Assembly (NCBI GenBank): GCA_030429765.1
Contig: JAUIER010000008.1
Location: 83,403-147,402 of the forward strand
Length of the DNA stretch: 64,000 nucleotides
Source of the DNA: a bacterium
Lineage (GTDB): Bacteria > Omnitrophota > Gorgyraeia > Zapsychrales > Zapsychraceae
Direction of reading: 5' to 3'
A model generated the notes under the pieces. It ran no database searches, was not told the origin of the DNA, and worked only from the letters and a program-made list of their open reading frames with translations. How positions within the stretch are numbered: the first letter of the stretch is position 1; each line of letters begins with the position of its first letter. Below, one piece after another: positions 25,152 through 39,806 of the stretch. Made by a program: the position numbers and the translations under genes.

Positions 25152-25273
25152 ATTTAATCCCCGATCCCGCCAAAAAATCGTGGCGGGCTCGCCCGCCTTA
25201 AGAGTATGGTGGGCTCATCCGCCTCAAAGTTATGACGGATGATTTGGGAAAAAAATTTAATCCCCGATAGCTC
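25152..25273. repeat. ~120-bp direct repeat copy 2, running into the 5' end of tRNA-Asn
   Basis: About 98% identical to 24668-24787. Confidence 0.8.
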
Positions 25274-25336
25274 AGTTGGTAGAGCAGCTGGCTGTTAACC
25301 AGCTTGTCCGTGGTTCGAGTCCACGTCGGGGAGCCA
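25261..25336 (+). tRNA. tRNA-Asn(GUU) with encoded CCA
   Basis: TCCCCGATAGCTCAGTTGGTAGAGC...anticodon loop CTGTTAA...GGTTCGAGTCC...TCGGGGAGCCA. Confidence 0.9.
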
Positions 25337-25376
25337 TATAAAAAAAGGGTATTGCACTAGCAATACCCTTTTTTTA
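25337..25376. terminator. Bidirectional intrinsic terminator
   Basis: AAAAAAAGGGTATTGC-acta-GCAATACCCTTTTTTT perfect hairpin flanked by A and T runs. Confidence 0.7.
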
Positions 25377-25686
25377 TATGATTTCTGGCTAAAAATTGAA
25401 CAAAGACCGCAGGGCAGTGAGAGTTCACTAGTGTGTAACGCAGTTACACACGTCGGGGAGTGATTCGACGCGCCCCTCGTTTCACTCGGTGCTTGCTCAT
25501 CATTGTTGGTGAACATAGTATAGTGAGACGAGGGGCTTTTTTTCGAAGAATCCTGAGCGAACGATGGTGAGCGAGGCCGAAGGCCGAGTCGAGCCAGAGT
25601 GAGTCGAAGGATGCAGTGAATCCCGTCGCAATATTAATCATATCCCCCAGAAAAGTTGTATTCATGTTCCCCAAGATTATCAGTCT

Positions 25687-25941
25687 ATGTACTATCTTTA
25701 TATTCTCAGATGTCAGAGAGGAAAGCTGTACACGGGGATTACGTCAGATATCCAACGCAGATTCAAGGAACATCGTCGTAAAAAGGCACATTTCACGTCC
25801 TACAATTTGCCAGAAGAAGTAATTTATACGGAAACTTTTCCAGACAGAAAGCAAGCCGCTAAAAGAGAACGCCAACTCAAGCGCTGGACCCGCGCCAAGA
25901 AAATGGCGTTGATTGATCGGGGAATTGTGAGTATTATTTAA
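25687..25941 (+). CDS. Second YhbQ-like GIY-YIG nuclease-family small protein (paralog)
   Basis: YYLYILRCQRGKLYTGITSDIQRRFKEH motif; 84 aa. Confidence 0.7.
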   Translation: MYYLYILRCQRGKLYTGITSDIQRRFKEHRRKKAHFTSYNLPEEVIYTETFPDRKQAAKRERQLKRWTRAKKMALIDRGIVSII

Positions 25942-25943
25942 TT

Positions 25944-26606
25944 ATGAAGTTTTTAAGTACACTAAGAGTGTTAAGTATCACTGTTTTGGCTGTTTCTCTG
26001 TCCGGCTGTATTGCGCCGCGTTCAAAGTTCTACCTTCCATCTCAAAGTGAAGCTACGTATTTCGGGCGGGTTAATAAGGCTGTTATGCCATCCGATATTA
26101 GAAATAATGTTGAACAGTATAGTGGCGAAGAAGTTCATTGGGTCGGAATAATACGAGGCCACGAAATTATTGACAAGGACTCAACGAAGATAATTGAGAT
26201 TGAAATAGACCAAAAATACTATGACTATGTATTGGATTATAGTATCCAACGAGAAAAAATGTTTTTATCGCCAAAAGGAGAAGGTATCTTCTATCTAGAC
26301 TTATTTGTAGACGCAGGCATATCGGAGGATGAGCTAAAAAGAATAATAGATCAGCTTAGCATCAAAAATTTAATATTTGCATACGGAGTCGTTCAGGGAT
26401 TAAAGCAAGGAAAACCCGCTGTGAAGGCACTTTATTATGTGATACACGATGAATCAGTGTATGCCACGAATATATTTTCATATGAATATGCTAAAGACGA
26501 GAACGGCAAGGTTATTCTAGGTAGTTCTGGATTTCCTTCATTAACCAATCATGAGGTCTTTCAAACGCCTTTATTTGGAAGAAATCAATCCAAAATCGAT
26601 AAATAA
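25944..26606 (+). CDS. Hypothetical lipoprotein
   Basis: Lipobox LSGC; AT-rich composition. Confidence 0.5.
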   Translation: MKFLSTLRVLSITVLAVSLSGCIAPRSKFYLPSQSEATYFGRVNKAVMPSDIRNNVEQYSGEEVHWVGIIRGHEIIDKDSTKIIEIEIDQKYYDYVLDYSIQREKMFLSPKGEGIFYLDLFVDAGISEDELKRIIDQLSIKNLIFAYGVVQGLKQGKPAVKALYYVIHDESVYATNIFSYEYAKDENGKVILGSSGFPSLTNHEVFQTPLFGRNQSKIDK

Positions 26607-26821
26607 TTTGAAATTGTAATTTTATGCTCTATTTTGCATATCTAGTTATCAAGTTCGTCTACGGGAGCAAGCCGTAATAAAAAGATATTGCTAATGCAAT
26701 GCCCTTTTTGGGTGTGATCCTCTACTTCAAGCTATCTATCAGCAGCATTTATTTTCATCTCAACTGTTGCTAAGCTATATCTTGTTTCATATAGTTATAT
26801 AATAAAGCCAAATCGAGAGAC

Positions 26822-27436
26822 ATGTTGACGACAAAAAATCTATTCAAACTCATAGTTGTGTGTTGTTTCCTGAGCGGATGTTCGGCGGTATCCACGGCCG
26901 GGAACGCGGTTGGAACCGTCGGGCGCGTGGGGTGGACGGCGGCCAAGGTCACGGGCAAAGCGGCCTATCACACCGGCAATGTGGCCTACAAGACCGGTCA
27001 ATTCACCAGTAAGGCGGTCCGAAGTGCCGTCTACATGAAGCAAGGCAAACAGCTAATTCCACTGCGCAAACAGGGCGACAGTTTGTACGTGGATGTCAAG
27101 CTCAATGGCAAGGCCTCGGCGCGCTTGCTGCTGGATACCGGGGCATCGGTGACTCAAATCTCTCACCGGCTGGCCAAGAAGTTACGTATCAAGAAAAATC
27201 AGGGTGTTCCGCTGGAGGTGCGTATTGCCAACGGCCAAATGGTGCGCGGCCGAAAGGTGCGTCTCAAAGAGATCCGGGTGAGAAGTGTTCGCGTGACCGA
27301 CGTGACGGCGATTGTTTTAGATCAAGAGGTGGCCAGTGATACGGACGGATTGCTGGGGATGAGTTTTCTCAAGCACTTTTCGTTTGAGGTCGATGCCGAA
27401 AAAGGCGAACTGCTGTTGCAGCAAAAGGCGTTATAG
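26822..27436 (+). CDS. Retropepsin-like (clan AA) aspartic protease lipoprotein
   Basis: Lipobox LSGC; active-site LLLDTGAS motif. Confidence 0.65.
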   Translation: MLTTKNLFKLIVVCCFLSGCSAVSTAGNAVGTVGRVGWTAAKVTGKAAYHTGNVAYKTGQFTSKAVRSAVYMKQGKQLIPLRKQGDSLYVDVKLNGKASARLLLDTGASVTQISHRLAKKLRIKKNQGVPLEVRIANGQMVRGRKVRLKEIRVRSVRVTDVTAIVLDQEVASDTDGLLGMSFLKHFSFEVDAEKGELLLQQKAL

Positions 27437-27538
27437 TTGTTTGCGTCCGGAATTTCAGTTACAAATATAGAGGGTCATCAATCCTGTTCATACCAAGTGT
27501 GTAAAGTACGCTTTTAACAATTTAACTCAGCGAATCAA

Positions 27539-28075
27539 ATGAAAATCGGTACCTACAATCCAAATGACGCCTCAAACATCGAGCAGTTGTTCATTCAGGC
27601 GTTTTCTGACGCAGAGGGACCGTCGGAGGGTGAGATGATTGGACGGCTTGTCAGGAATTACCTGACCGGCACGGATGCGCCGGACTTTTATTGTTTTACG
27701 GCCGTGGATAGCGTCGAGGTCTTGGGATCAATCTTTTTTTCACGAATCACGTTTGAGTCAGACATCAACGCCTTTATTTTATCGCCCGTTGCTGTAAGGA
27801 CAGATGCGCAAAACCAGGGTATTGGTCAGCGATTGATACGATATGGTCTGGATGATCTATCGAAGCGGGGAGTGGAATTAGTCATTACCTATGGCGATCC
27901 GGTTTTTTATCGTAAGGTTGGTTTTGAGGTTGTCCCCGAAACGAAAATCCCGGCGCCTCTGAGTTTGACCTATCCCGACGGGTGGATGGCGCAGTCCTTA
28001 ACGGACAAGGAGATTCCCGTGATTACCGGAAATTCCGCATGTGTAGCGGCGTTGAACGATCCTGAGTATTGGTAA
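27539..28075 (+). CDS. GNAT-family N-acetyltransferase
   Basis: Acetyl-CoA-binding motif QNQGIGQRLI. Confidence 0.65.
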   Translation: MKIGTYNPNDASNIEQLFIQAFSDAEGPSEGEMIGRLVRNYLTGTDAPDFYCFTAVDSVEVLGSIFFSRITFESDINAFILSPVAVRTDAQNQGIGQRLIRYGLDDLSKRGVELVITYGDPVFYRKVGFEVVPETKIPAPLSLTYPDGWMAQSLTDKEIPVITGNSACVAALNDPEYW

Positions 28076-28100
28076 GTCGCATGGGCAAAAAACATCCCTA

Positions 28101-28140
28101 CCCCATAACCCCCCGGGGCTTTGGGACCAGGTCTTAAAAA
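28101..28140 (+). repeat. Dispersed intergenic repeat, copy A
   Basis: ccccataaCCCCCCGGGGCTTTGGGACCAGGTCTTAAAAA. Confidence 0.7.
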
Positions 28141-28250
28141 CAGGGCGTCGCCTCCCAAGTATCAGCCGTATTCTTGCCGTCGGTTTTACATCTGGACGTT
28201 TATCTCAGAATGTGGCATAATCATCGTACTAATTAACCCGAGGGTTTCGC

Positions 28251-28403
28251 ATGACTTCAATCCAGCTAAAGAAAGAACTTTCAAATATTAAAAAGGCCAG
28301 AGAGCGATTACTACGGGATCGCCGTAAAGCTCGAGCCTTCTTGCGTGCCATTGGTTTGATTGATAGCAACGGTAAGCCCGTAGCTCCCCTCAAACGTAAG
28401 TAA
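28251..28403 (+). CDS. Small basic protein (50 aa), translationally coupled to the downstream ART-like gene; candidate antitoxin or partner
   Basis: Absent from the ORF track. ATG at 28251 follows a GAGGG Shine-Dalgarno and a cataat -10. Its stop TAA overlaps the next start as TAATG. The protein is K/R-rich. Confidence 0.45.
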   Translation: MTSIQLKKELSNIKKARERLLRDRRKARAFLRAIGLIDSNGKPVAPLKRK

Positions 28404-28999
28404 TGCCTACCAACATACCTTCCTTCATTATCGGCTATCATGGGTGTGATCGAGAATTAGCTGAGAAAGTCATTGCTGGAGAAACACATTTAAGAGTTAG
28501 TAAGAATCGTTATGATTGGCTGGGCAATGGAATATATTTTTGGGAAAATAATCCTTACCGAGCTTTTCAATGGGCTAAGGATCATGTTGGCAAAACAAAT
28601 GCACGGATCAAGAATCCCTACGCAATTGGCGCGGTTATCAATCCGGGTAACTGTCTTGACCTAACGGAGGCCAAGTCGATTGAATTGATCAAACAGACCT
28701 ATTCGACAATATCCGCGATTGCCGATGTGGAAAATTTTGAGTTACCTCGGAACCAGGATGTGGATGGTAGCAGCGATTTCCTAGTCCGTAATCTGGATTG
28801 TTTTGTTATCAATGCTCTGCATGAAATCAGAGAGGAAACAGAAGATCCATTTGATACGGTCCGATCGCCTTTCTTTGAGGGAAATAGATTGTATGAGGGG
28901 TCGGGATTCCGTGAAAAATCCCATGTCCAAATCTGTGTGCGAAGTTCGGCCTCAATTCTGGGGTATTTCAGGATACTTCAGAAGGATGTATTTAAATAA
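28403..28999 (+). CDS. Candidate ADP-ribosyltransferase-fold protein (PARP/diphtheria-toxin-like)
   Basis: IIGYHGC aligns with the PARP WHGS motif; LGNGIYFWEN aligns with PARP FGKGIYFADM, the NAD-binding Tyr loop. The match is motif-level only. Confidence 0.4.
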   Translation: MPTNIPSFIIGYHGCDRELAEKVIAGETHLRVSKNRYDWLGNGIYFWENNPYRAFQWAKDHVGKTNARIKNPYAIGAVINPGNCLDLTEAKSIELIKQTYSTISAIADVENFELPRNQDVDGSSDFLVRNLDCFVINALHEIREETEDPFDTVRSPFFEGNRLYEGSGFREKSHVQICVRSSASILGYFRILQKDVFK

Positions 29000-29017
29000 A
29001 ACCTTGCCCCTTAATCT

Positions 29018-29045
29018 CCAGGGAATAGTGCCAGGTCTTAAAAAT
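29018..29045 (+). repeat. Dispersed intergenic repeat, copy B (degenerate: 3' half only)
   Basis: ccagggaatagtgCCAGGTCTTAAAAA. Confidence 0.45.
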
Positions 29046-29129
29046 AAAGGCGTGGATGCCTACTAAGCTAGGATAATTAAGCGATCTGATTCTACATCTT
29101 GCGGATAGCATAGAGAGGATTTATTTATA

Positions 29130-29927
29130 ATGAAATCAGCTTGGTTAACGGATATACATCTAAATTTTCTTAAAGACAGGCAAGTGAAGGGATTTCTAAA
29201 CGCGCTTGGAAAGGAGTCGGCGGATAATTATCTTATTTCTGGCGACATTGGAGAGGCTGACAGCGTAATTAAGTATTTAAAGCTGCTTGATTCAATCTTA
29301 GATAGACCCGTATATGTAGTTTTGGGTAATCATGATTTTTATAAGGGGTCAATAGAAGTCGTACGAAGCGAGTTGTCTGAGTATGTAAATCATTCCCGCA
29401 ATATTGTCTGGATGAACAAAATAGAGTTTATTGAGCTGACCGATAAGACGGCCTTGATTGGGCATGATTCATGGGCGGACGGTAGGATTGGAGATTTTTA
29501 TGGCAGTATGGTTGAATTAAATGATTTTCATCTAATCGACGAATTGAAATTGAAAGGCAAGGCGGCAAGGATTGAGGCCATGCAAAAATTGGCTGACGAG
29601 GCTGCAGATCACTTTAAACAAAATCTTCCAAAGATATTAAAGCGCTTTCAAAATGTTATTGTGCTTACTCACGTTCCACCTTTTAAAGAAGCGACATGGC
29701 ACGAAGGGAGTACGTCTGGTGATGATTGGCTGCCGTTTTTTTCAAGTCGGATTGTCGGAGATGTTTTGAAGCGTATCATGAATACGCATCCGGATCACAA
29801 CATGACTGTGCTTTGCGGACACACGCATAGTTCGGGTAAGTGTCAAATTTTGCCTAACCTAAAGGTTTTAACGGGAGGGGCAGAATATGGGATACCTGCC
29901 ATACAGCAAATTCTGAACATAACCTAG
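29130..29927 (+). CDS. Calcineurin-like metallophosphoesterase
   Basis: D..H, GD, GNHD and GHTH motifs (LISGDIG, VLGNHDF, CGHTH). Confidence 0.7.
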   Translation: MKSAWLTDIHLNFLKDRQVKGFLNALGKESADNYLISGDIGEADSVIKYLKLLDSILDRPVYVVLGNHDFYKGSIEVVRSELSEYVNHSRNIVWMNKIEFIELTDKTALIGHDSWADGRIGDFYGSMVELNDFHLIDELKLKGKAARIEAMQKLADEAADHFKQNLPKILKRFQNVIVLTHVPPFKEATWHEGSTSGDDWLPFFSSRIVGDVLKRIMNTHPDHNMTVLCGHTHSSGKCQILPNLKVLTGGAEYGIPAIQQILNIT

Positions 29928-30011: not shown

Positions 30012-33620
<3,609 letters not shown>

Positions 33621-33628
33621 TGGTAGTC

Positions 33629-33670
33629 TCGCAGCGCAATCCCTGGGGATTTGTAACCGAATCTTAAAAA
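33629..33670 (+). repeat. Dispersed intergenic repeat, copy E (degenerate)
   Basis: tcgcagCGCAATCCCTGGGGATTTGTAACCGAATCTTAAAAA. Confidence 0.5.
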
Positions 33671-33965
33671 GCAGGCCGACGCCCAACATAGTTCCTGTCT
33701 ACGCCCTATTCGGAAGTTCTATCATGTCTACCAATCGCTTTGGGGGGTGGGGGTGAGGCCTTTTTTATGGTAAGTAACCTAAAGGTCAAAGGTGAAGCCG
33801 GCGTCTCAGTTTAGATTTAAGTTATTGCTATATAATCATTTATGTATTACAAGTGTCGAATTGCAATCCTTATGATATTGAATAGTAACACTATGATAAC
33901 AAAGTGTATGATTTTGTATCTTTGTGCTAAAATACCCACAATATAATTCAAAAAAGGATTTCAAT

Positions 33966-34799
33966 ATGAGTTCATGGATATTTCAAGGAAACCCTGATAA
34001 ATTTGACGTTGATGAGTATCTCCGAAAAACCGATTATGTGTATTGGAGTGTAACATGGCCTGCGCATCAGAAACAAATGGCTATCGGGGATAAGGTATTT
34101 ATATGGCGGGCTAAAGGTAAAATGAAAGCAGTTTCGGGTTTGGTAGCTTTTGGAAGTATTGCTGAAGAATGTACTGGTAGGGATAAAGTAAAGAAGCCGA
34201 TGAAGATTTATGATTCTTTATGGAATTTAGGTCCGCAGGAAGAAGCGTCAGAAATCAAGGTTGGTGTGCAAATAACAGAAGTACGATTATCACCTGGAAA
34301 AGGTATGGTGACTTTGGATGAAATTTTATGTGACCCAGTTTTAAGTGATATGCAGATAGTCAAGGCTCGACAGGGGTCAAATTTTAGCCTTACTGAGGCT
34401 CAGTATCAAAGATTAGTTGAATTGTGGGGAAGTGTATCTGATGAGCAGATAGAATTTCAGCCAACAGGGTTATCAGTTTTAGAGGGAAAAATTTATTATC
34501 GTATTCATCGTACTAGAGAGCGTGATAGTAATATTGTTAAAAAGGCAAAAGCAGAATTTCTTAAGAAGCATGGATGTTATTTTTGTGAGATATGTAAGTT
34601 AAAGTTAGAAGAAAAATATGGGGATCTAGCTTCTGGTTTTATTGAAGCCCACCACATTAAACCTGTGAATAAAATGAAACTCGGAGATAAAACATCTGTT
34701 GATGATTTAATGATGTTGTGTCCAAATTGTCATAGAATATTACATCGAGGTGATCCAGAAGTTAATTTGGAAAAAATGAAAAATTTATTTAAAGATTAA
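33966..34799 (+). CDS. EVE (PUA-like) domain fused to HNH endonuclease; candidate modification-dependent restriction nuclease
   Basis: N-terminus WIFQGNPDKFDVDEYL...WSVTW...IGDKVFIW matches the EVE pattern. C-terminus CYFCEIC...HHIKP...CPNCH is a Cys4 HNH motif. Start moved to the ATG at 33966, which has a Shine-Dalgarno. Confidence 0.55.
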   Translation: MSSWIFQGNPDKFDVDEYLRKTDYVYWSVTWPAHQKQMAIGDKVFIWRAKGKMKAVSGLVAFGSIAEECTGRDKVKKPMKIYDSLWNLGPQEEASEIKVGVQITEVRLSPGKGMVTLDEILCDPVLSDMQIVKARQGSNFSLTEAQYQRLVELWGSVSDEQIEFQPTGLSVLEGKIYYRIHRTRERDSNIVKKAKAEFLKKHGCYFCEICKLKLEEKYGDLASGFIEAHHIKPVNKMKLGDKTSVDDLMMLCPNCHRILHRGDPEVNLEKMKNLFKD

Positions 34800-35203
34800 T
34801 GGATCATTTGTCTAAAACAAAAAGAAGTTGGAACATGTCCTTGATTAAATCAAAGGACACAAAGCCGGAAGTTATTGTACGGAGCATCGTCCATAGATTG
34901 GGATTTAGGTTTAGACTTCATAAATCTGGATTACCAGGCAGTCCAGATATAGTTCTTAAGAAATATAAAACAGTTATTTTTGTTCATGGATGTTTTTGGC
35001 ATCAGCATAAAGGCTGCAAAAGATCAAATATCCCAAAGACAAATCAGAAATATTGGATACCAAAGCTTGAAAGAAATTTAGAAAGAGATAGAATAAATAA
35101 AAGAGATTTGAAGAAAGATGGCTGGAAAGTTATTGTTTTATGGGAATGTCAGATGCGAGATCCTGAACGGCTGAAGTTGGATTTAATAAGTAAATTAATA
35201 TAG
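34799..35203 (+). CDS. vsr: Very-short-patch repair endonuclease Vsr
   Basis: DTKPE...GSPDIVL...FVHGCFWHQH Vsr signature; start overlaps the upstream stop as TAATG. Confidence 0.8.
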   Translation: MDHLSKTKRSWNMSLIKSKDTKPEVIVRSIVHRLGFRFRLHKSGLPGSPDIVLKKYKTVIFVHGCFWHQHKGCKRSNIPKTNQKYWIPKLERNLERDRINKRDLKKDGWKVIVLWECQMRDPERLKLDLISKLI

Positions 35204-35293
35204 AATTTGACATACCATACATATGTGTGGTATAAAGTTAATTGTCCCCCAGAAATCGATTCCCTTAACTAAAACTAAAGGAAAGGGGCAATT

Positions 35294-36328
35294 ATGGAAG
35301 ATCATTTTATGGCAAAATCAAACGGTTACACTGTTGGAAGTCTATTCGCAGGAATAGGAGGTGTATGTCAGGGCTTTAAGGATGCAGGCTATGATGTTAA
35401 ATGGGCCAATGAATTCGATAGTAACGCAAATGTGACTTATTCCGAAAACTTTACACATAAGTTAGATCCATCAGATATTCATGATTTAGATCCTTCTAAT
35501 TTTGAATCAGTAGATGTAATCACTTCTGGTTTTCCGTGTCAGGCTTTTTCTATCGCGGGTTATCAGCATGGATTTAAAGATGATAGAGGAAATTTATTCT
35601 TTGAGACTATGCGTTTCATAAATACTCTTAAGCCTAGAGCATTCTTATTAGAAAATGTAAAGAATTTGGTTTCTCATGATAAAGGTAGAACTTTTGAGAT
35701 TATTAAAGAAACGGTATTAGATAGCGGGTATTCTTTTGTTCCGAAAGTTTTAAATTCAATGGAATATGGAAATGTTCCGCAGACAAGAGAACGAATTTAT
35801 ATTGTTGGATTCCGAAATGAGTTCGACGATAACTCTGTTGATTTTCAATGGCCTAAAAAGATTAAGTTAGGTAAGTCAATTAGGGATGTTCTTGAAAGTT
35901 CTAAAGTAGATGATAAATATTACTACAAGAAAAGCTGTCATTTTTACAAGGAATTAAAAGCTGGAATGAAGTCACGAGATACCGTTTACCAGTGGAGAAG
36001 GGTCTATTTAAGAGAAAATAAAAGTAATGTCTGTCCAACTTTAACTGCAAACATGGGAACAGGTGGTCATAATGTTCCATTAATCTTAGATGATTATGGT
36101 ATTAGAAAATTAACTCCCAGAGAATGCGCTCGATTACAAGGGTTTAAGGAAAGTTATAAAATACCACATGAAAAGGTTTGTAATTCTCAACTGTATAAGC
36201 AGTTTGGAAATTCTGTAAGTGTTCCTGTGATTCGAAGAATAGCGAATCAAATACAGTCTCATTTAGATTTAAATGATGATGTCAAGAAGGTGGCTGTTGC
36301 AAAAGAGCTAGAGTTAGCAACGGTATAA
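35294..36328 (+). CDS. DNA cytosine-5 methyltransferase
   Basis: Motif I FAGIGG; motif IV GFPCQAFS; motif VI ENVKNL. Confidence 0.85.
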   Translation: MEDHFMAKSNGYTVGSLFAGIGGVCQGFKDAGYDVKWANEFDSNANVTYSENFTHKLDPSDIHDLDPSNFESVDVITSGFPCQAFSIAGYQHGFKDDRGNLFFETMRFINTLKPRAFLLENVKNLVSHDKGRTFEIIKETVLDSGYSFVPKVLNSMEYGNVPQTRERIYIVGFRNEFDDNSVDFQWPKKIKLGKSIRDVLESSKVDDKYYYKKSCHFYKELKAGMKSRDTVYQWRRVYLRENKSNVCPTLTANMGTGGHNVPLILDDYGIRKLTPRECARLQGFKESYKIPHEKVCNSQLYKQFGNSVSVPVIRRIANQIQSHLDLNDDVKKVAVAKELELATV

Positions 36329-36339
36329 TTTTATATTGA

Positions 36340-36378
36340 TTTAATTTAGGGCTGATACTTAACGGTGTCAGCCCTTTT
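36340..36378 (+). terminator. Intrinsic terminator after the methyltransferase gene
   Basis: GGGCTGAtacttaacggtgTCAGCCC followed by TTTTTA. Confidence 0.6.
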
Positions 36379-36418
36379 TATTTACCCTTTGTAATTAAGG
36401 TAATTATTGTTAATATAT

Positions 36419-37309
36419 ATGGAAGATAATGAAGGGCAAATATATATGACAATTGATAAGAATCAAGTTAAAAAGCTGAACAAAAAAGCTTCAAGTGTGC
36501 CAAAAGACTTTAAAGATGAGGTCACTAAGCAATTCAATATTGATATTGAGCAGGAAGCTATACAGATACAATTAGTTAAAGAGCTTGAAGATTATAATTA
36601 TGTGAAGAATAAAATTGTGAAAATAGCTGATAAATACGGCTATTACAAGGCTGATCTCCAAAAGTTTTATGACAATTATTTCTTCCGGCAAGTTTCTAAG
36701 AATATTAACTTTGACAGTGTTAATTCAGACATAATTAAAAATCTTGAGAAAGATTCTTCTATAAATTCAAATGAGTTATCATTTATTAAGTCAAAACTAA
36801 AAAATATCCTTAATAAGTCGCTATTTTTAGCGTCTATTGACGGGTTTTCAACAAATATATTGCATGTTGAATCAGGTGTAATGACCGCTAATGCTGGCGA
36901 TAGTGCTCAGTTTTTATTTTTAGGCAGAGCAATTTTAGCGGGATTTAATTGTTCTAACGTTGATGTTCGTTCTAGTAGATATGATGCAATTATTGATTTG
37001 GATGGTAAGCTATTAAAAATTCAAGTGAAAGGGATTTCTACTGGAGGAAGTATAAGTTTTAAAGATAGAGACAGAGGAGGTCAGGGGATAGATCATACTC
37101 ATCCAAGAAATGTTGGAAAAAGAATAACTAGTAAAGACTGTGATATTTTTGTAGCAGTAGATAAGCAAGTAGGTCTTTGTTATCTTGTGCCTATGGAAGA
37201 ATTTGCTGACCCATTATCCGATGATCAAGCGAAAAGTGTGAGCTTAAGTAAAGTGGAACAATACAAAGAAAATTGGGATATTATTAAGAAAGTTGCAGAT
37301 AGTATGTGA
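36419..37309 (+). CDS. Putative type II restriction endonuclease (PD-(D/E)XK-like), cognate to the adjacent C5-methyltransferase
   Basis: Position directly after the methyltransferase; YDAIIDLDGKLLKIQVKG resembles a D..D..(E/Q)xK core. The first ATG at 36419 is preferred over the tool's TTG at 36407. Confidence 0.4.
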   Translation: MEDNEGQIYMTIDKNQVKKLNKKASSVPKDFKDEVTKQFNIDIEQEAIQIQLVKELEDYNYVKNKIVKIADKYGYYKADLQKFYDNYFFRQVSKNINFDSVNSDIIKNLEKDSSINSNELSFIKSKLKNILNKSLFLASIDGFSTNILHVESGVMTANAGDSAQFLFLGRAILAGFNCSNVDVRSSRYDAIIDLDGKLLKIQVKGISTGGSISFKDRDRGGQGIDHTHPRNVGKRITSKDCDIFVAVDKQVGLCYLVPMEEFADPLSDDQAKSVSLSKVEQYKENWDIIKKVADSM

Positions 37310-37866
37310 TAACATATGTGTAACAAAACAAGCCTGATAACAAGCAAACAGCAGTAAATAACAGCAAGTCAAATCTTCCCTAAGTCCAACCAAGAGTTAA
37401 TATTAGTAAAAACAAGCAAATATCAGCAACGATCATAAACATTCTCATAACCTGAAGGTCTCAGTATACAGATTTACGTATTATTACCGCATGGTATTTT
37501 TAGAGCCATGGGATAGCGGCAAATACGATACCTGACCAGCCGACACCCAACCCCACCCGCCACAAAACCATCTTAAATCTAACCAATTGCACCCCCGCCA
37601 ACCACCGGTAAGTAGGGGATTTATTGTTTTACTGGCTGTTCCGGGGGGGGTGGAGACTTATTCTAACTTAAATCCTCGTTTCTGTTAATGGGGAGCAGTA
37701 TAAATTTGACTATGATCAACAAATTTGGAATGGATACATATACTGCGAAATTCCCCTCGATGTCCGCTTAAGTCCTACCGTGTCATATTGACAAAGCAGG
37801 CTGACCTTTTTAAGCTAATACAAGCTTAATATTTCTAGCCAGATAGCAACTTCAAAGGATGCAGTA

Positions 37867-38505
37867 ATGAAAAAAATTTTTGTAGTTTTAGTGCTTTGTT
37901 TAGTTCCCTCCATGGCTCAAGCCATTATAATTATGCCTGAGGTGAGTGGTACATTTAGGGATGGACCATTTGCGGCGAAAGATGGGGTGCCCGATCAAAC
38001 ATACAATGTTACCACGTCGATTTTTAATACACCTGTCGACGAGTACCGGGCAGTCATTGAATTTGATTTGCTGAATGTATCAGAAAACGTATTAGAAGGT
38101 TACATCCAGTTGAATCGGGATGCTACCTCGGGGCCGTATCCGTTTCAAATTGATGTTTTTACTTATGTAGGTGATGGCTTTCTTTCAAATGACGACTTCA
38201 GTGCGGGAGACAAATACACAACCTTTACGTATGCGGGTTTTGATAGTTCCGTTGTTGATGTGACGTCGGCAATCAATGCGGCATTGGATGATAACTATAA
38301 GTATTTGGGTTTTAATTTTAGGTACGTCGGGCAGTCAGATATCTCGGTTGAGGGTCCATTCATAAGTTACCGCGACAATTTGCTATTTATCAATGAACGA
38401 CCGCCGGAGCCGATATCATATCCTATCCCCGAACCCGCCAGTCTGATCCTTTTCGGCAGCGGAATGGCAGGAGCTTTTCTTCGACGTCGCAAATCATCCC
38501 ATTAA
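37867..38505 (+). CDS. PEP-CTERM-anchored secreted protein (exosortase substrate)
   Basis: Signal peptide; C-terminal PIPEPASLILFGSGMAGAFLRRRK sorting signal. Confidence 0.75.
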   Translation: MKKIFVVLVLCLVPSMAQAIIIMPEVSGTFRDGPFAAKDGVPDQTYNVTTSIFNTPVDEYRAVIEFDLLNVSENVLEGYIQLNRDATSGPYPFQIDVFTYVGDGFLSNDDFSAGDKYTTFTYAGFDSSVVDVTSAINAALDDNYKYLGFNFRYVGQSDISVEGPFISYRDNLLFINERPPEPISYPIPEPASLILFGSGMAGAFLRRRKSSH

Positions 38506-38725: not shown

Positions 38726-39289
38726 TTGAGTATGGAAAACATATCCAGAGACACAATTGAAGACGCGGCCCGGGGTGATCTCGCGGCATTTGAGGCCATC
38801 TACCGGGAATGTTCCGGCTATGTGTTCAATGTGGCCTGGCGGATTGTCAACAACCGGGCGGACGCCGAAGAGGTCGTACAGGAGGTATTTCTGGTGATTC
38901 ATCGAAAACTGAAACATTACCGTTTTGAATCCGCGTTTAAGACCTGGGTCTACCGCGTGGCCGCCAACAGCGCCGTCGACTATGTGCGCAAAAGCGCCCG
39001 CACCCGGCCCACGGATGAGTATCGGGCGATGGTGCAGGCCGCGCCGCCCGCCGGACCATCCGGCCAGCCGGCCGATGAACGCCGTATCATCGAAACCACC
39101 CGCCGCGTGTTTGAGCGTCTGCCGGCGGACCAGAAGACCTGTATGGTGCTCCGGCACATCGAAGGCCTGTCCTACAAGGAAATCGCCGACACCCTCGACA
39201 TCAATATCAATACCGTACGAACCCGCTTGAGACGGGCGAGGGAGACCCTGCTCGCGCTCCGGCATGAGGTGCTGCACCATGAACTGTGA
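38726..39289 (+). CDS. ECF-type RNA polymerase sigma factor (sigma-70 family)
   Basis: Region 2 EEVVQEVFLVIHRKL..FKTWVYRVAANSAVDY and a region 4 HTH. Confidence 0.8.
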   Translation: MSMENISRDTIEDAARGDLAAFEAIYRECSGYVFNVAWRIVNNRADAEEVVQEVFLVIHRKLKHYRFESAFKTWVYRVAANSAVDYVRKSARTRPTDEYRAMVQAAPPAGPSGQPADERRIIETTRRVFERLPADQKTCMVLRHIEGLSYKEIADTLDININTVRTRLRRARETLLALRHEVLHHEL

Positions 39290-39806
39290 TCAGATCAAAG
39301 AATTGTTGCTGACGGATTATCTGGATCAGAACCTGTCCGACGAACAGACTCAGGCCGTTGACCGGCATCTGAATGCGTGTCCGGCGTGTCGGGAATTCGC
39401 CGCGAGCGTTGAGACCTATGTGAGCGCACCGTTGGAGAGTCTGGAACGGGGTGCACCGTCCGAGGCGGTGTGGCAGAAGATCCGTACCGAGATCGAGTCT
39501 GAACAGGCCGTGGAGGCTGACGTCGAGACGGCGCCGTCCATGCTGGAGTCATGGAAGGCTTTATTGAAACGGATCCGGCCGGTCTATGCCGGATTGGCGT
39601 TGGTCGCGATCTTGACCTTGAGTATGGTCCGTTTGTACAACCCGTCCGTACCGGTTGCACCGGACGCGGGCATCAGTCCGGACGATCAGGCCCGGCAGAT
39701 TGAATTTATGACCTATTTGACGTCGGAAAACGGCGAGTTAGGCGAGTCGGACAGTGAAGACTATGCCGAAGGGATCGAAGAATATTTTCTGTTATCTATG
39801 AGATAA
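39264..39806 (+). CDS. Zinc-binding (ZAS-type) anti-sigma factor with a TM helix
   Basis: HLNACPACREF motif; overlaps the sigma-gene stop; central TM helix. Confidence 0.6.
   Translation: MRCCTMNCDQIKELLLTDYLDQNLSDEQTQAVDRHLNACPACREFAASVETYVSAPLESLERGAPSEAVWQKIRTEIESEQAVEADVETAPSMLESWKALLKRIRPVYAGLALVAILTLSMVRLYNPSVPVAPDAGISPDDQARQIEFMTYLTSENGELGESDSEDYAEGIEEYFLLSMR

Follow-up and report, generated by a model that had tools for sequence, protein, structure and literature searches.

How can one cell carry a cytosine methyltransferase and, beside it, a nuclease built like those that attack modified DNA? The question is raised by an AT-rich islet of ~3.7 kb located in a 64,000-nucleotide stretch (the window) of contig JAUIER010000008.1 (GenBank assembly GCA_030429765.1), from a bacterium of the family Zapsychraceae, phylum Omnitrophota. 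Cytosine methylases are natural antagonists of modification-dependent nucleases, and the two are seldom encoded side by side. The islet therefore constitutes a small, clonable natural test case of a cell tolerating a 5-methylcytosine (5mC, or m5C) writer and a modified-DNA reader-nuclease together. It is probably a horizontally acquired, mosaic four-gene defence cassette composed of two independent arms, one of type II and one of type IV. Its parts are new members of known families, and their combination is uncommon rather than a conserved new system. The features of the islet, in window positions, are as follows.

33770-37460, no strand: AT-rich, putatively foreign block (island), delimited by breaks in GC content and by the GC content at third codon positions (GC3)
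33885-33912, + strand: weak promoter-like site GTAACA-16-TATGAT upstream of the EVE-HNH gene (consensus scan, 9/12 positions)
33966-34799, + strand: gene 1, EVE-HNH nuclease of 277 residues, a putative type IV modification-dependent endonuclease (Pfam, PADLOC, AF2, Foldseek), with the EVE domain at nucleotides ~33972-34421, a helical linker, and the HNH/Cys4 domain at nucleotides ~34584-34748
34799-35203, + strand: gene 2, Vsr very-short-patch T:G mismatch endonuclease of 134 residues (PF03852, TIGR00632)
35207-35236, + strand: near-consensus promoter TTGACA-18-TATAAA ahead of the methyltransferase gene, read from the sequence and putative in function
35294-36328, + strand: gene 3, C5-cytosine DNA methyltransferase of 344 residues (PF00145, TIGR00675, PADLOC)
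36348-36384, + strand: intrinsic terminator between the methyltransferase and nuclease genes (stem-loop and T-run, by folding)
36419 or 36446-37309, + strand: gene 4, putative type II restriction endonuclease of 296 or 287 residues (PF11645, AF2, Foldseek)

The four genes, all on the + strand, follow one another head to tail with intact open reading frames. Sliding GC content is 0.30-0.39 inside the islet (~33.75-37.5 kb) vs 0.51-0.61 in the flanks. The left break occurs at ~33770, where the GC content over 100 nucleotides falls from 0.48 to 0.28-0.36, and the right one at ~37460, where it rises from 0.31 to 0.45-0.54. GC3 amounts to 0.26, 0.30, 0.25, and 0.24 in genes 1 to 4, respectively, vs 0.66-0.71 in the surrounding core genes (icd, ECF-sigma, RND-pump). 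An earlier reading of the window, made by a model from the letters alone (the sequence-only reading), had described four contiguous plus-strand genes in an AT-richer block and had called for a comparison with the flanks; both the reading frames and these values agree with that description. Furthermore, an independent Logan assembly contig (L001, 6262 bp) carries the same four genes and both junctions to the flanking genes, and the block is thus no obvious assembly chimera. As to the host, a DnaX fragment clustering at 90% identity or more with the DnaX of the window bears the label Candidatus Omnitrophota.

One part of the cassette is the pair formed by genes 3 and 4. The methyltransferase is matched by PF00145 (2e-88), TIGR00675 (2e-95), and the PADLOC model MTase_II (3e-117), and the FAGIGG, GFPCQAFS, and LENVKN motifs are found in its translation, in line with the FAGIGG, PCQ, and ENV motifs recognized earlier. 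Its closest solved match is M.HhaI (3e-58), a GCGC C5 methyltransferase. The two enzymes have their catalytic motifs in common, a QxRxR-type motif being aligned as well, together with the target-recognition layout R-x-Y ... T-L-[ST]-A ... GG. The residues and loops of the target-recognition region differ, however, and GCGC cannot be assumed as the motif of the islet enzyme. A nearly invariant target-recognition core, YQWRRxYxRxNKSxxxPTLTANxGxGGHNV, is common to the methyltransferases linked to gene-4 homologues.

Gene 4 matches PF11645 (PD-(D/E)XK_5, 1.4e-9) and, by sequence, PDB ID: 2ost (1.8e-3), the PD-(D/E)XK homing endonuclease I-Ssp6803I, itself a PF11645 member. Its AF2 model (pLDDT 80) displays a helical N-terminal domain of ~140 residues and a C-terminal nuclease domain. 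The latter aligns in Foldseek with I-Ssp6803I with a target-normalised TM of 0.71 and an rmsd (root-mean-square deviation) of 3.0 Å. Both proteins share the C-terminal fold and the D...QxK core, which in gene 4 reads YDAIID...IQVKG (D189, D193, Q202, and K204) and is invariant in 25 homologues. A fourth protein of ~297 residues with a D..D..QxK core had been reported by the sequence-only reading. The core and the nuclease fold hold, but the length is 296 residues or, more likely, 287, as the ATG at 36446 has a better ribosome-binding site than that at 36419.

The gene-4 family is large, with at least 772 homologues, mostly from Campylobacterota, and is unusually well conserved (~56% mean identity). 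Among 80 metagenomic loci, a gene-4 relative adjoins a methyltransferase 46-63% identical to that of the islet in 72 cases, and the loci devoid of it are mostly truncated contigs. The gene order may be methylase then nuclease, nuclease then methylase, or on opposite strands. In the three genome contexts inspected (Arcobacter, Helicobacter, and a metagenome bin), the gene-4 homologue overlaps the end of the C5 methyltransferase gene, and the flanking housekeeping genes differ from one to the other. Such a constant linkage amid varied orders and unrelated surroundings marks the two genes as a mobile restriction-modification unit. In 15 of the 80 loci, a homologue of Vsr (38-45% identical) lies upstream, indicating that Vsr has been recruited recurrently in this nuclease-methylase family. 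The layout of methylase, nuclease, and Vsr, previously held to be a standard one, is hence documented beyond the islet.

These data bear on a different proposal, according to which gene 4 would be a homing or selfish nuclease, or otherwise no restriction partner, leaving the methyltransferase as an orphan Dcm-Vsr pair. The proposal draws on the closest solved relative of gene 4 being intron-encoded, on a weak match to the PADLOC homing-endonuclease model (2e-3), on the NCBI family name ("group I intron-associated PD-(D/E)XK endonuclease"), and on the terminator that separates gene 4 from the methyltransferase. Yet an Rfam scan of positions 33300-38000 returns no intron model around gene 4, only one sub-threshold L20-leader match falling on the terminator hairpin. 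In contrast with I-Ssp6803I, gene 4 is outside any intron, possesses the extra conserved helical domain of 140 residues, and consistently has a co-varying C5 methyltransferase at its side, the two reading frames often overlapping; it thus behaves as a restriction enzyme. The homing or selfish alternative appears extremely unlikely. Judging from sequence and neighbourhoods, genes 3 and 4 represent a conserved mobile type II restriction-modification pair, not a methylase accompanied by a homing endonuclease. In the loci seen, the gene-4 family is never found inside an intron; it probably consists of restriction enzymes, misannotated by the name "group I intron-associated" (P0036, P0084, P0110, and others). 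At least 772 proteins bearing that name would then serve a C5 methyltransferase family as its restriction partner.

In the first arm of the cassette, the methyltransferase would mark a short target wherever it occurs in the host's DNA, and the PD-(D/E)XK_5 nuclease would cut the unmethylated copies in incoming DNA. Gene 2 fits in this arm. It is matched by PF03852 (3.7e-31) and by TIGR00632 (7e-44, 148.9 bits for a cut-off of 97.85), and aligns with E. coli Vsr (PDB ID: 1cw0; 6e-31, residues 5-129) with the PD, GCFWH, and WEC motifs kept; the protein is therefore the canonical Vsr that had been proposed. It would nick the T:G mismatches arising from deaminated methylated cytosines and so limit the mutational cost of the methylase. 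As in E. coli Dcm-Vsr and similar m5C systems, a C5 methyltransferase adjoins an intact Vsr. Unlike in Dcm-Vsr, vsr is here located upstream of the methyltransferase, with a promoter-like site between them, and is coupled to a type IV gene. The stop codon of the EVE-HNH gene and the start codon of vsr overlap by 1 nucleotide (TAATG, read from the sequence), which suggests that both are co-transcribed and translationally coupled.

The methyltransferase gene starts 91 bp past vsr and 495 bp past the EVE-HNH gene, on the same strand. The promoter ahead of it was skipped by the consensus scan because its -10 hexamer ends in A; promoter-like sites detected by such scans are no more numerous in the islet region than in shuffled sequence. 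The spacer of this promoter is an 18-bp near-perfect palindrome (ACCATACAT/ATGTGTGGT, 35214-35231). This palindrome resembles an operator, yet the islet encodes no controller protein, and no small controller (C) protein is found in its intergenic regions. Downstream of the methyltransferase, the intrinsic terminator noticed earlier consists of a 12-bp stem (36348-36375) with 6 G-C pairs, followed by the T-run TTTTTATTT. It folds at -21.5 kcal/mol (z = -4.3), and none of 200 shuffled sequences is equally stable. These signals are compatible with three transcription units: the coupled EVE-HNH and vsr genes, the methyltransferase gene with its own promoter and terminator, and the nuclease gene.

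The target of the methylase was approached through word avoidance, using ~0.5 Mb of loci with homologues of the methylase-nuclease pair and 0.83 Mb of control loci. GCNGC is found at 0.69 in the pair-carrying loci vs 0.99 in the controls, and CCWGG at 0.46 vs 0.82. GGCC is depleted to 0.38, but it is depleted in low-GC controls too (0.53). GATC, CATG, ACGT, and GCGC are likewise depleted in the pair-carrying loci, as expected since Campylobacterota carry many restriction-modification systems. No word avoidance is seen within the 64-kb window itself. GCNGC and CCWGG are accordingly weak, non-specific leads.

Further genes accompany the pair in related loci. A Bsp6I-like protein of 137-180 residues (RE_Bsp6I, ~1e-4, below the cut-off) is encoded between the nuclease and the methyltransferase in six of them (L132, L150, L153, L161, L165, and L166), and this weak neighbour hints at GCNGC as the motif. 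A family of 213-233 residues, with no Pfam match and a D...xK-like motif, recurs in L126, L127, L131, L136, L139, L146, and L164, as well as in a gut group (L150, L153, L155, L157, L158, L160, and L165).

The second arm consists of gene 1. Its N-terminal EVE domain (PF01878, 1.8e-10, 41.4 bits for a cut-off of 23) is fused to an HNH domain (PF01844, 3.3e-9), the latter being also matched by mREase_IV, the PADLOC type IV model (3e-5). The start of the gene was corrected to the ATG at 33966 instead of an upstream GTG, in agreement with the database protein P0001. In an alignment of 20 homologues (39-51% identity), the HNH residues C207, C210, H229, H230, C252, N254, C255, H256, and H260 (CxxC...CxxC and HH..N..H) are invariant, as are W4, Q7, G8, N9, Y26, W47, and R48 of the EVE domain, in which W27 is conserved too. 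The profile derived from this alignment retrieves the HNH domain of EcoKMcrA (3.8e-12 over residues 183-270) together with canonical EVE proteins. The AF2 model (pLDDT 83) has as top Foldseek matches the EVE proteins 2ar1, THYN1 (PDB ID: 5j3e), and 2eve, of which THYN1 has been crystallised with 5mC DNA. It also matches VcaM4I (PDB ID: 6yex) over its full length (E 8e-7, ~14% identity). Neither phmmer nor profile searches connect VcaM4I with gene 1, and the relationship is visible in the fold alone. The sequence-only reading was thus correct in assigning an EVE/PUA-like N-terminus and a Cys4 HNH nuclease to this protein. A homing endonuclease unrelated to modification sensing would, in that reading, have refuted it; the closest solved relative of the HNH domain is instead the 5mC-dependent endonuclease EcoKMcrA.

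Gene 1 shares with VcaM4I an N-terminal EVE domain, a helical linker, and a C-terminal beta-beta-alpha-Me HNH domain. The base-flipping hydrophobic pocket (P24/W82/Y130) and the wedge residue (Q128) of VcaM4I may have counterparts among the conserved aromatic and polar EVE residues of gene 1. Enzymes of the VcaM4I type usually stand alone, whereas gene 1 is coupled to vsr beside a C5 methyltransferase and has an HNH domain closer to that of EcoKMcrA. The HNH/Cys4 region of EcoKMcrA (PDB ID: 6ghc) is the best sequence match of gene 1, but the sensor of gene 1 is an EVE domain and not the McrA N-terminal domain. On the strength of its predicted fold, gene 1 is built like known type IV enzymes, with EVE domain, linker, and HNH domain, but sits in another clade. 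At E <= 1e-30, this clade gathers 366 clusters (50% identity). No member that has been characterised was found in it, and it is far in sequence from TspA15I, VcaM4I, and CmeDI, the three EVE-HNH enzymes that have been. In the second arm, this solitary-type enzyme would use its EVE domain to flip a modified base out and bind it, and would cut nearby with its McrA-like HNH domain. It would thereby catch phages that evade the first arm by means of modified bases such as 5-hydroxymethylcytosine (5hmC).

The base recognized might not be a cytosine at all. The EVE domain could read 6-methyladenine (6mA), 5-hydroxymethyldeoxyuridine (5hmdU), or a hypermodified base, or else modified RNA, and there would then be no interplay with m5C. 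Several PUA-like proteins offer parallels: the PUA-like/HNH enzyme ScoA3V is stimulated by 6mA, TspA15I and CmeDI of the TspA15I group act on 5hmdU too, and EVE domains occur in many RNA-related contexts (Bell et al., PMC7641849). Besides the distance of the gene-1 clade from VcaM4I in sequence, YTH domains, which bind m6A (N6-methyladenosine), figure among the fold matches of gene 1. Their E-values, however, are 3-4 orders worse than those of the best matches, which are canonical EVE proteins and VcaM4I, and McrA, the closest relative of the HNH partner, is 5mC-dependent. A non-cytosine reader is therefore considered unlikely.

If cytosine modifications are read, the question of compatibility with the resident methylase arises. 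The EVE-HNH enzymes characterised so far favour 5hmC over 5mC, and their authors foresee only "mild conflicts" with C5 methyltransferases (PMC6765204), making coexistence with a methylase plausible. Their substrates also include glucosyl-5hmC or 5hmdU, again above 5mC. In the two-arm cassette, the 5mC sites written by the resident methylase are sparse and presumably do not activate the EVE-HNH nuclease: it may prefer 5hmC or some other base, require densely modified DNA, or depend on sequence context.

Alternatively, the EVE-HNH nuclease would recognise the resident 5mC, and a true conflict would be kept harmless by regulation, either promoter methylation or low expression. A precedent exists in Pectobacterium carotovorum, where an m5C restriction-modification system silences a 5mC-dependent HNH nuclease via a single promoter site, M.PcaRCI acting on the type IV HNH gene pcaRCIIR (PMC8989522). 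As in the islet, a single genome holds both an m5C restriction-modification system and an HNH nuclease of the kind that acts on modified DNA; in contrast, PcaRCI and PcaRCII occupy separate loci and were acquired at different times, with the conflict solved by promoter methylation (PMC8989522), whereas the islet is a single 3.7-kb cassette. In Dcm+ cells, modification-dependent enzymes of the SRA-HNH and DUF3427 types are toxic, and the 5mC-DNA complex of THYN1 points in the same direction. Nevertheless, the EVE-HNH and methylase genes, in one cassette and with the same GC3, appear to have come together, neither having invaded the other's genome, and the characterised EVE-HNH enzymes are weak on 5mC. 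Such a managed conflict is decidedly unlikely.

The independence of the two arms is apparent from their distribution. No EVE-HNH gene is present in the 80 loci of the gene-4 family. Conversely, among 23 full-length EVE-HNH loci from GTDB species representatives, examined over a 6-kb neighbourhood, none harbors a Vsr. A C5 methyltransferase is located near the EVE-HNH gene in two of them, on the opposite strand and 1.7-2.2 kb off, and is missing from the other 21. The two closest EVE-HNH relatives looked at closely are stand-alone genes, as expected of type IV enzymes, and a DNA methyltransferase lies within 3 kb of <6% of PUA-nuclease open reading frames (PMC6765204). The islet departs from this usual solitary setting by the C5 methyltransferase found 495 bp downstream. 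A literature search on EVE, Vsr, methyltransferase, and HNH together returned only PMC6765204. The EVE-HNH protein is hence the unusual element, as the sequence-only reading had it, and in the sequences compared its juxtaposition with the methylase, nuclease, and Vsr is a one-off, seen in one genome.

Other type IV-like genes are observed beside the gene-4 family. In a human-gut metagenome contig (L161, 1711-5835), genes for Mrr, Vsr, a PD-(D/E)XK_5 nuclease, the Bsp6I-like protein, and a C5 methyltransferase follow one another on the same strand. This Mrr (Mrr_N and Mrr_cat, type IV) is directly upstream of vsr, a second and independent case of a type IV gene preceding vsr. In L148 (4112-5804) and L152, a 227-residue protein encoded directly upstream of the gene-4 homologue combines an unassigned N-terminal domain, a sensor other than EVE, with an HNH domain 47% identical to that of gene 1. 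These two loci have no C5 methyltransferase within 5 kb, and their neighbours are AIPR, DUF4420, and Z1. We take such neighbours, whether Mrr or HNH proteins with a different sensor, to reflect the mosaic way in which defence genes usually cluster, although a small probability of a functional link is left.

Two proposals build on such a link. In the first, the EVE-HNH and Vsr proteins would be a functional pair linked to the methylase, and the islet a new three- or four-component system instead of a mosaic: for instance, a reader of the methylase's mark might guide or license nicking and repair, or punish the loss or spread of methylation. The overlap of the two genes, the unrelated Mrr directly upstream of vsr in L161, and a GC3 uniform over the four genes are all consistent with it. 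The arrangement is nonetheless unconserved (Vsr in 0/23 EVE-HNH loci, EVE-HNH in 0/80 nuclease loci), other genes lie upstream in the 15 Vsr-containing relatives, and both protein families act alone, so that this proposal is very unlikely indeed. In the second, deemed very unlikely, the coupling beside the methylase is itself functional, and reader-nuclease, T:G repair nickase, and m5C writer make up an integrated unit. The EVE-HNH protein might then be blind to the methylation pattern that the cassette itself writes, or be licensed by it, and attack other patterns of cytosine modification. The cassette would in that case enforce one epigenetic identity on the cell, and the independent Mrr-Vsr-nuclease-methylase group of L161 would follow the same logic.

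Regarding the origin of the two-arm cassette, its composition and the taxonomy of the relatives of its genes argue for horizontally acquired low-GC DNA. The argument draws on these two lines because no empty site was found: no island-free relative was retrieved for such a comparison, the genome of the window is absent from the GTDB species representatives, and the left flanking gene is an orphan without homologue. No integrase, transposase, or tRNA is found at the islet. The apparent horizontal acquisition put forward by the sequence-only reading is therefore upheld by composition and taxonomy, but not by an empty site or a mobility gene. A plasmid origin was tried with a tblastn search of the gene-4 nuclease against 72,556 plasmids, which gave zero matches, and a phage origin with the EVE-HNH protein, which gives only partial HNH matches in phages.

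Short repeats surround the islet. A 13-nucleotide direct repeat (12/13 identical), AAAGCAGGC[C/T]GAC, brackets it at 33668-33680 and 37793-37805; the 8-mer GGTAAGTA occurs at 33769-33776 and 37607-37614, with 3 copies in 64 kb vs 0.72 expected; and the 11-nucleotide inverted repeat TTAGATTTAAG occurs at 33811-33821 and 37572-37584. These repeats were chosen post hoc and are all within chance range. G-rich and C-rich runs are also seen around the edges, at 33742-33758 and 37545-37655. Repeats and runs may be insertion scars or due to chance.

Several points weigh against a mosaic of two independent, transferred arms. The 1-nucleotide overlap between the EVE-HNH and vsr genes is tighter than expected of two unrelated modules. 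At the islet, no mobility gene, tRNA target, or empty site backs the transfer. The extension of a 5hmC preference from VcaM4I to gene 1 is a weak analogy, given ~14% identity in the structural alignment and no match at the sequence level. Finally, the Bsp6I-like gene and the 213-233-residue family adjoin the methyltransferase in some related loci, so that gene 4 as the sole cognate nuclease is not watertight everywhere.

In the surroundings of the islet, the gene on the left (32484-33620; 378 residues by its open reading frame, 324 in NCBI) has no Pfam or NCBIfam match, and its product finds no homologue but itself among 5.8 billion proteins. Farther to the left, a second patch of lower GC content (0.36-0.43) extends over 25261-29927, beginning just past a tRNA-Asn (25261-25336). 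Its five + strand open reading frames encode a retroviral-type aspartyl protease domain, a GNAT acetyltransferase, a metallophosphoesterase, and two proteins without Pfam match; this patch may be another acquired segment. On the right, from 37867, a PEP-CTERM sorting-signal protein is encoded, with a GC content of 0.43, between the islet and core values. Past it lies an ECF sigma-factor-like gene (38726-39289), overlapped by an open reading frame at 39264-39806.

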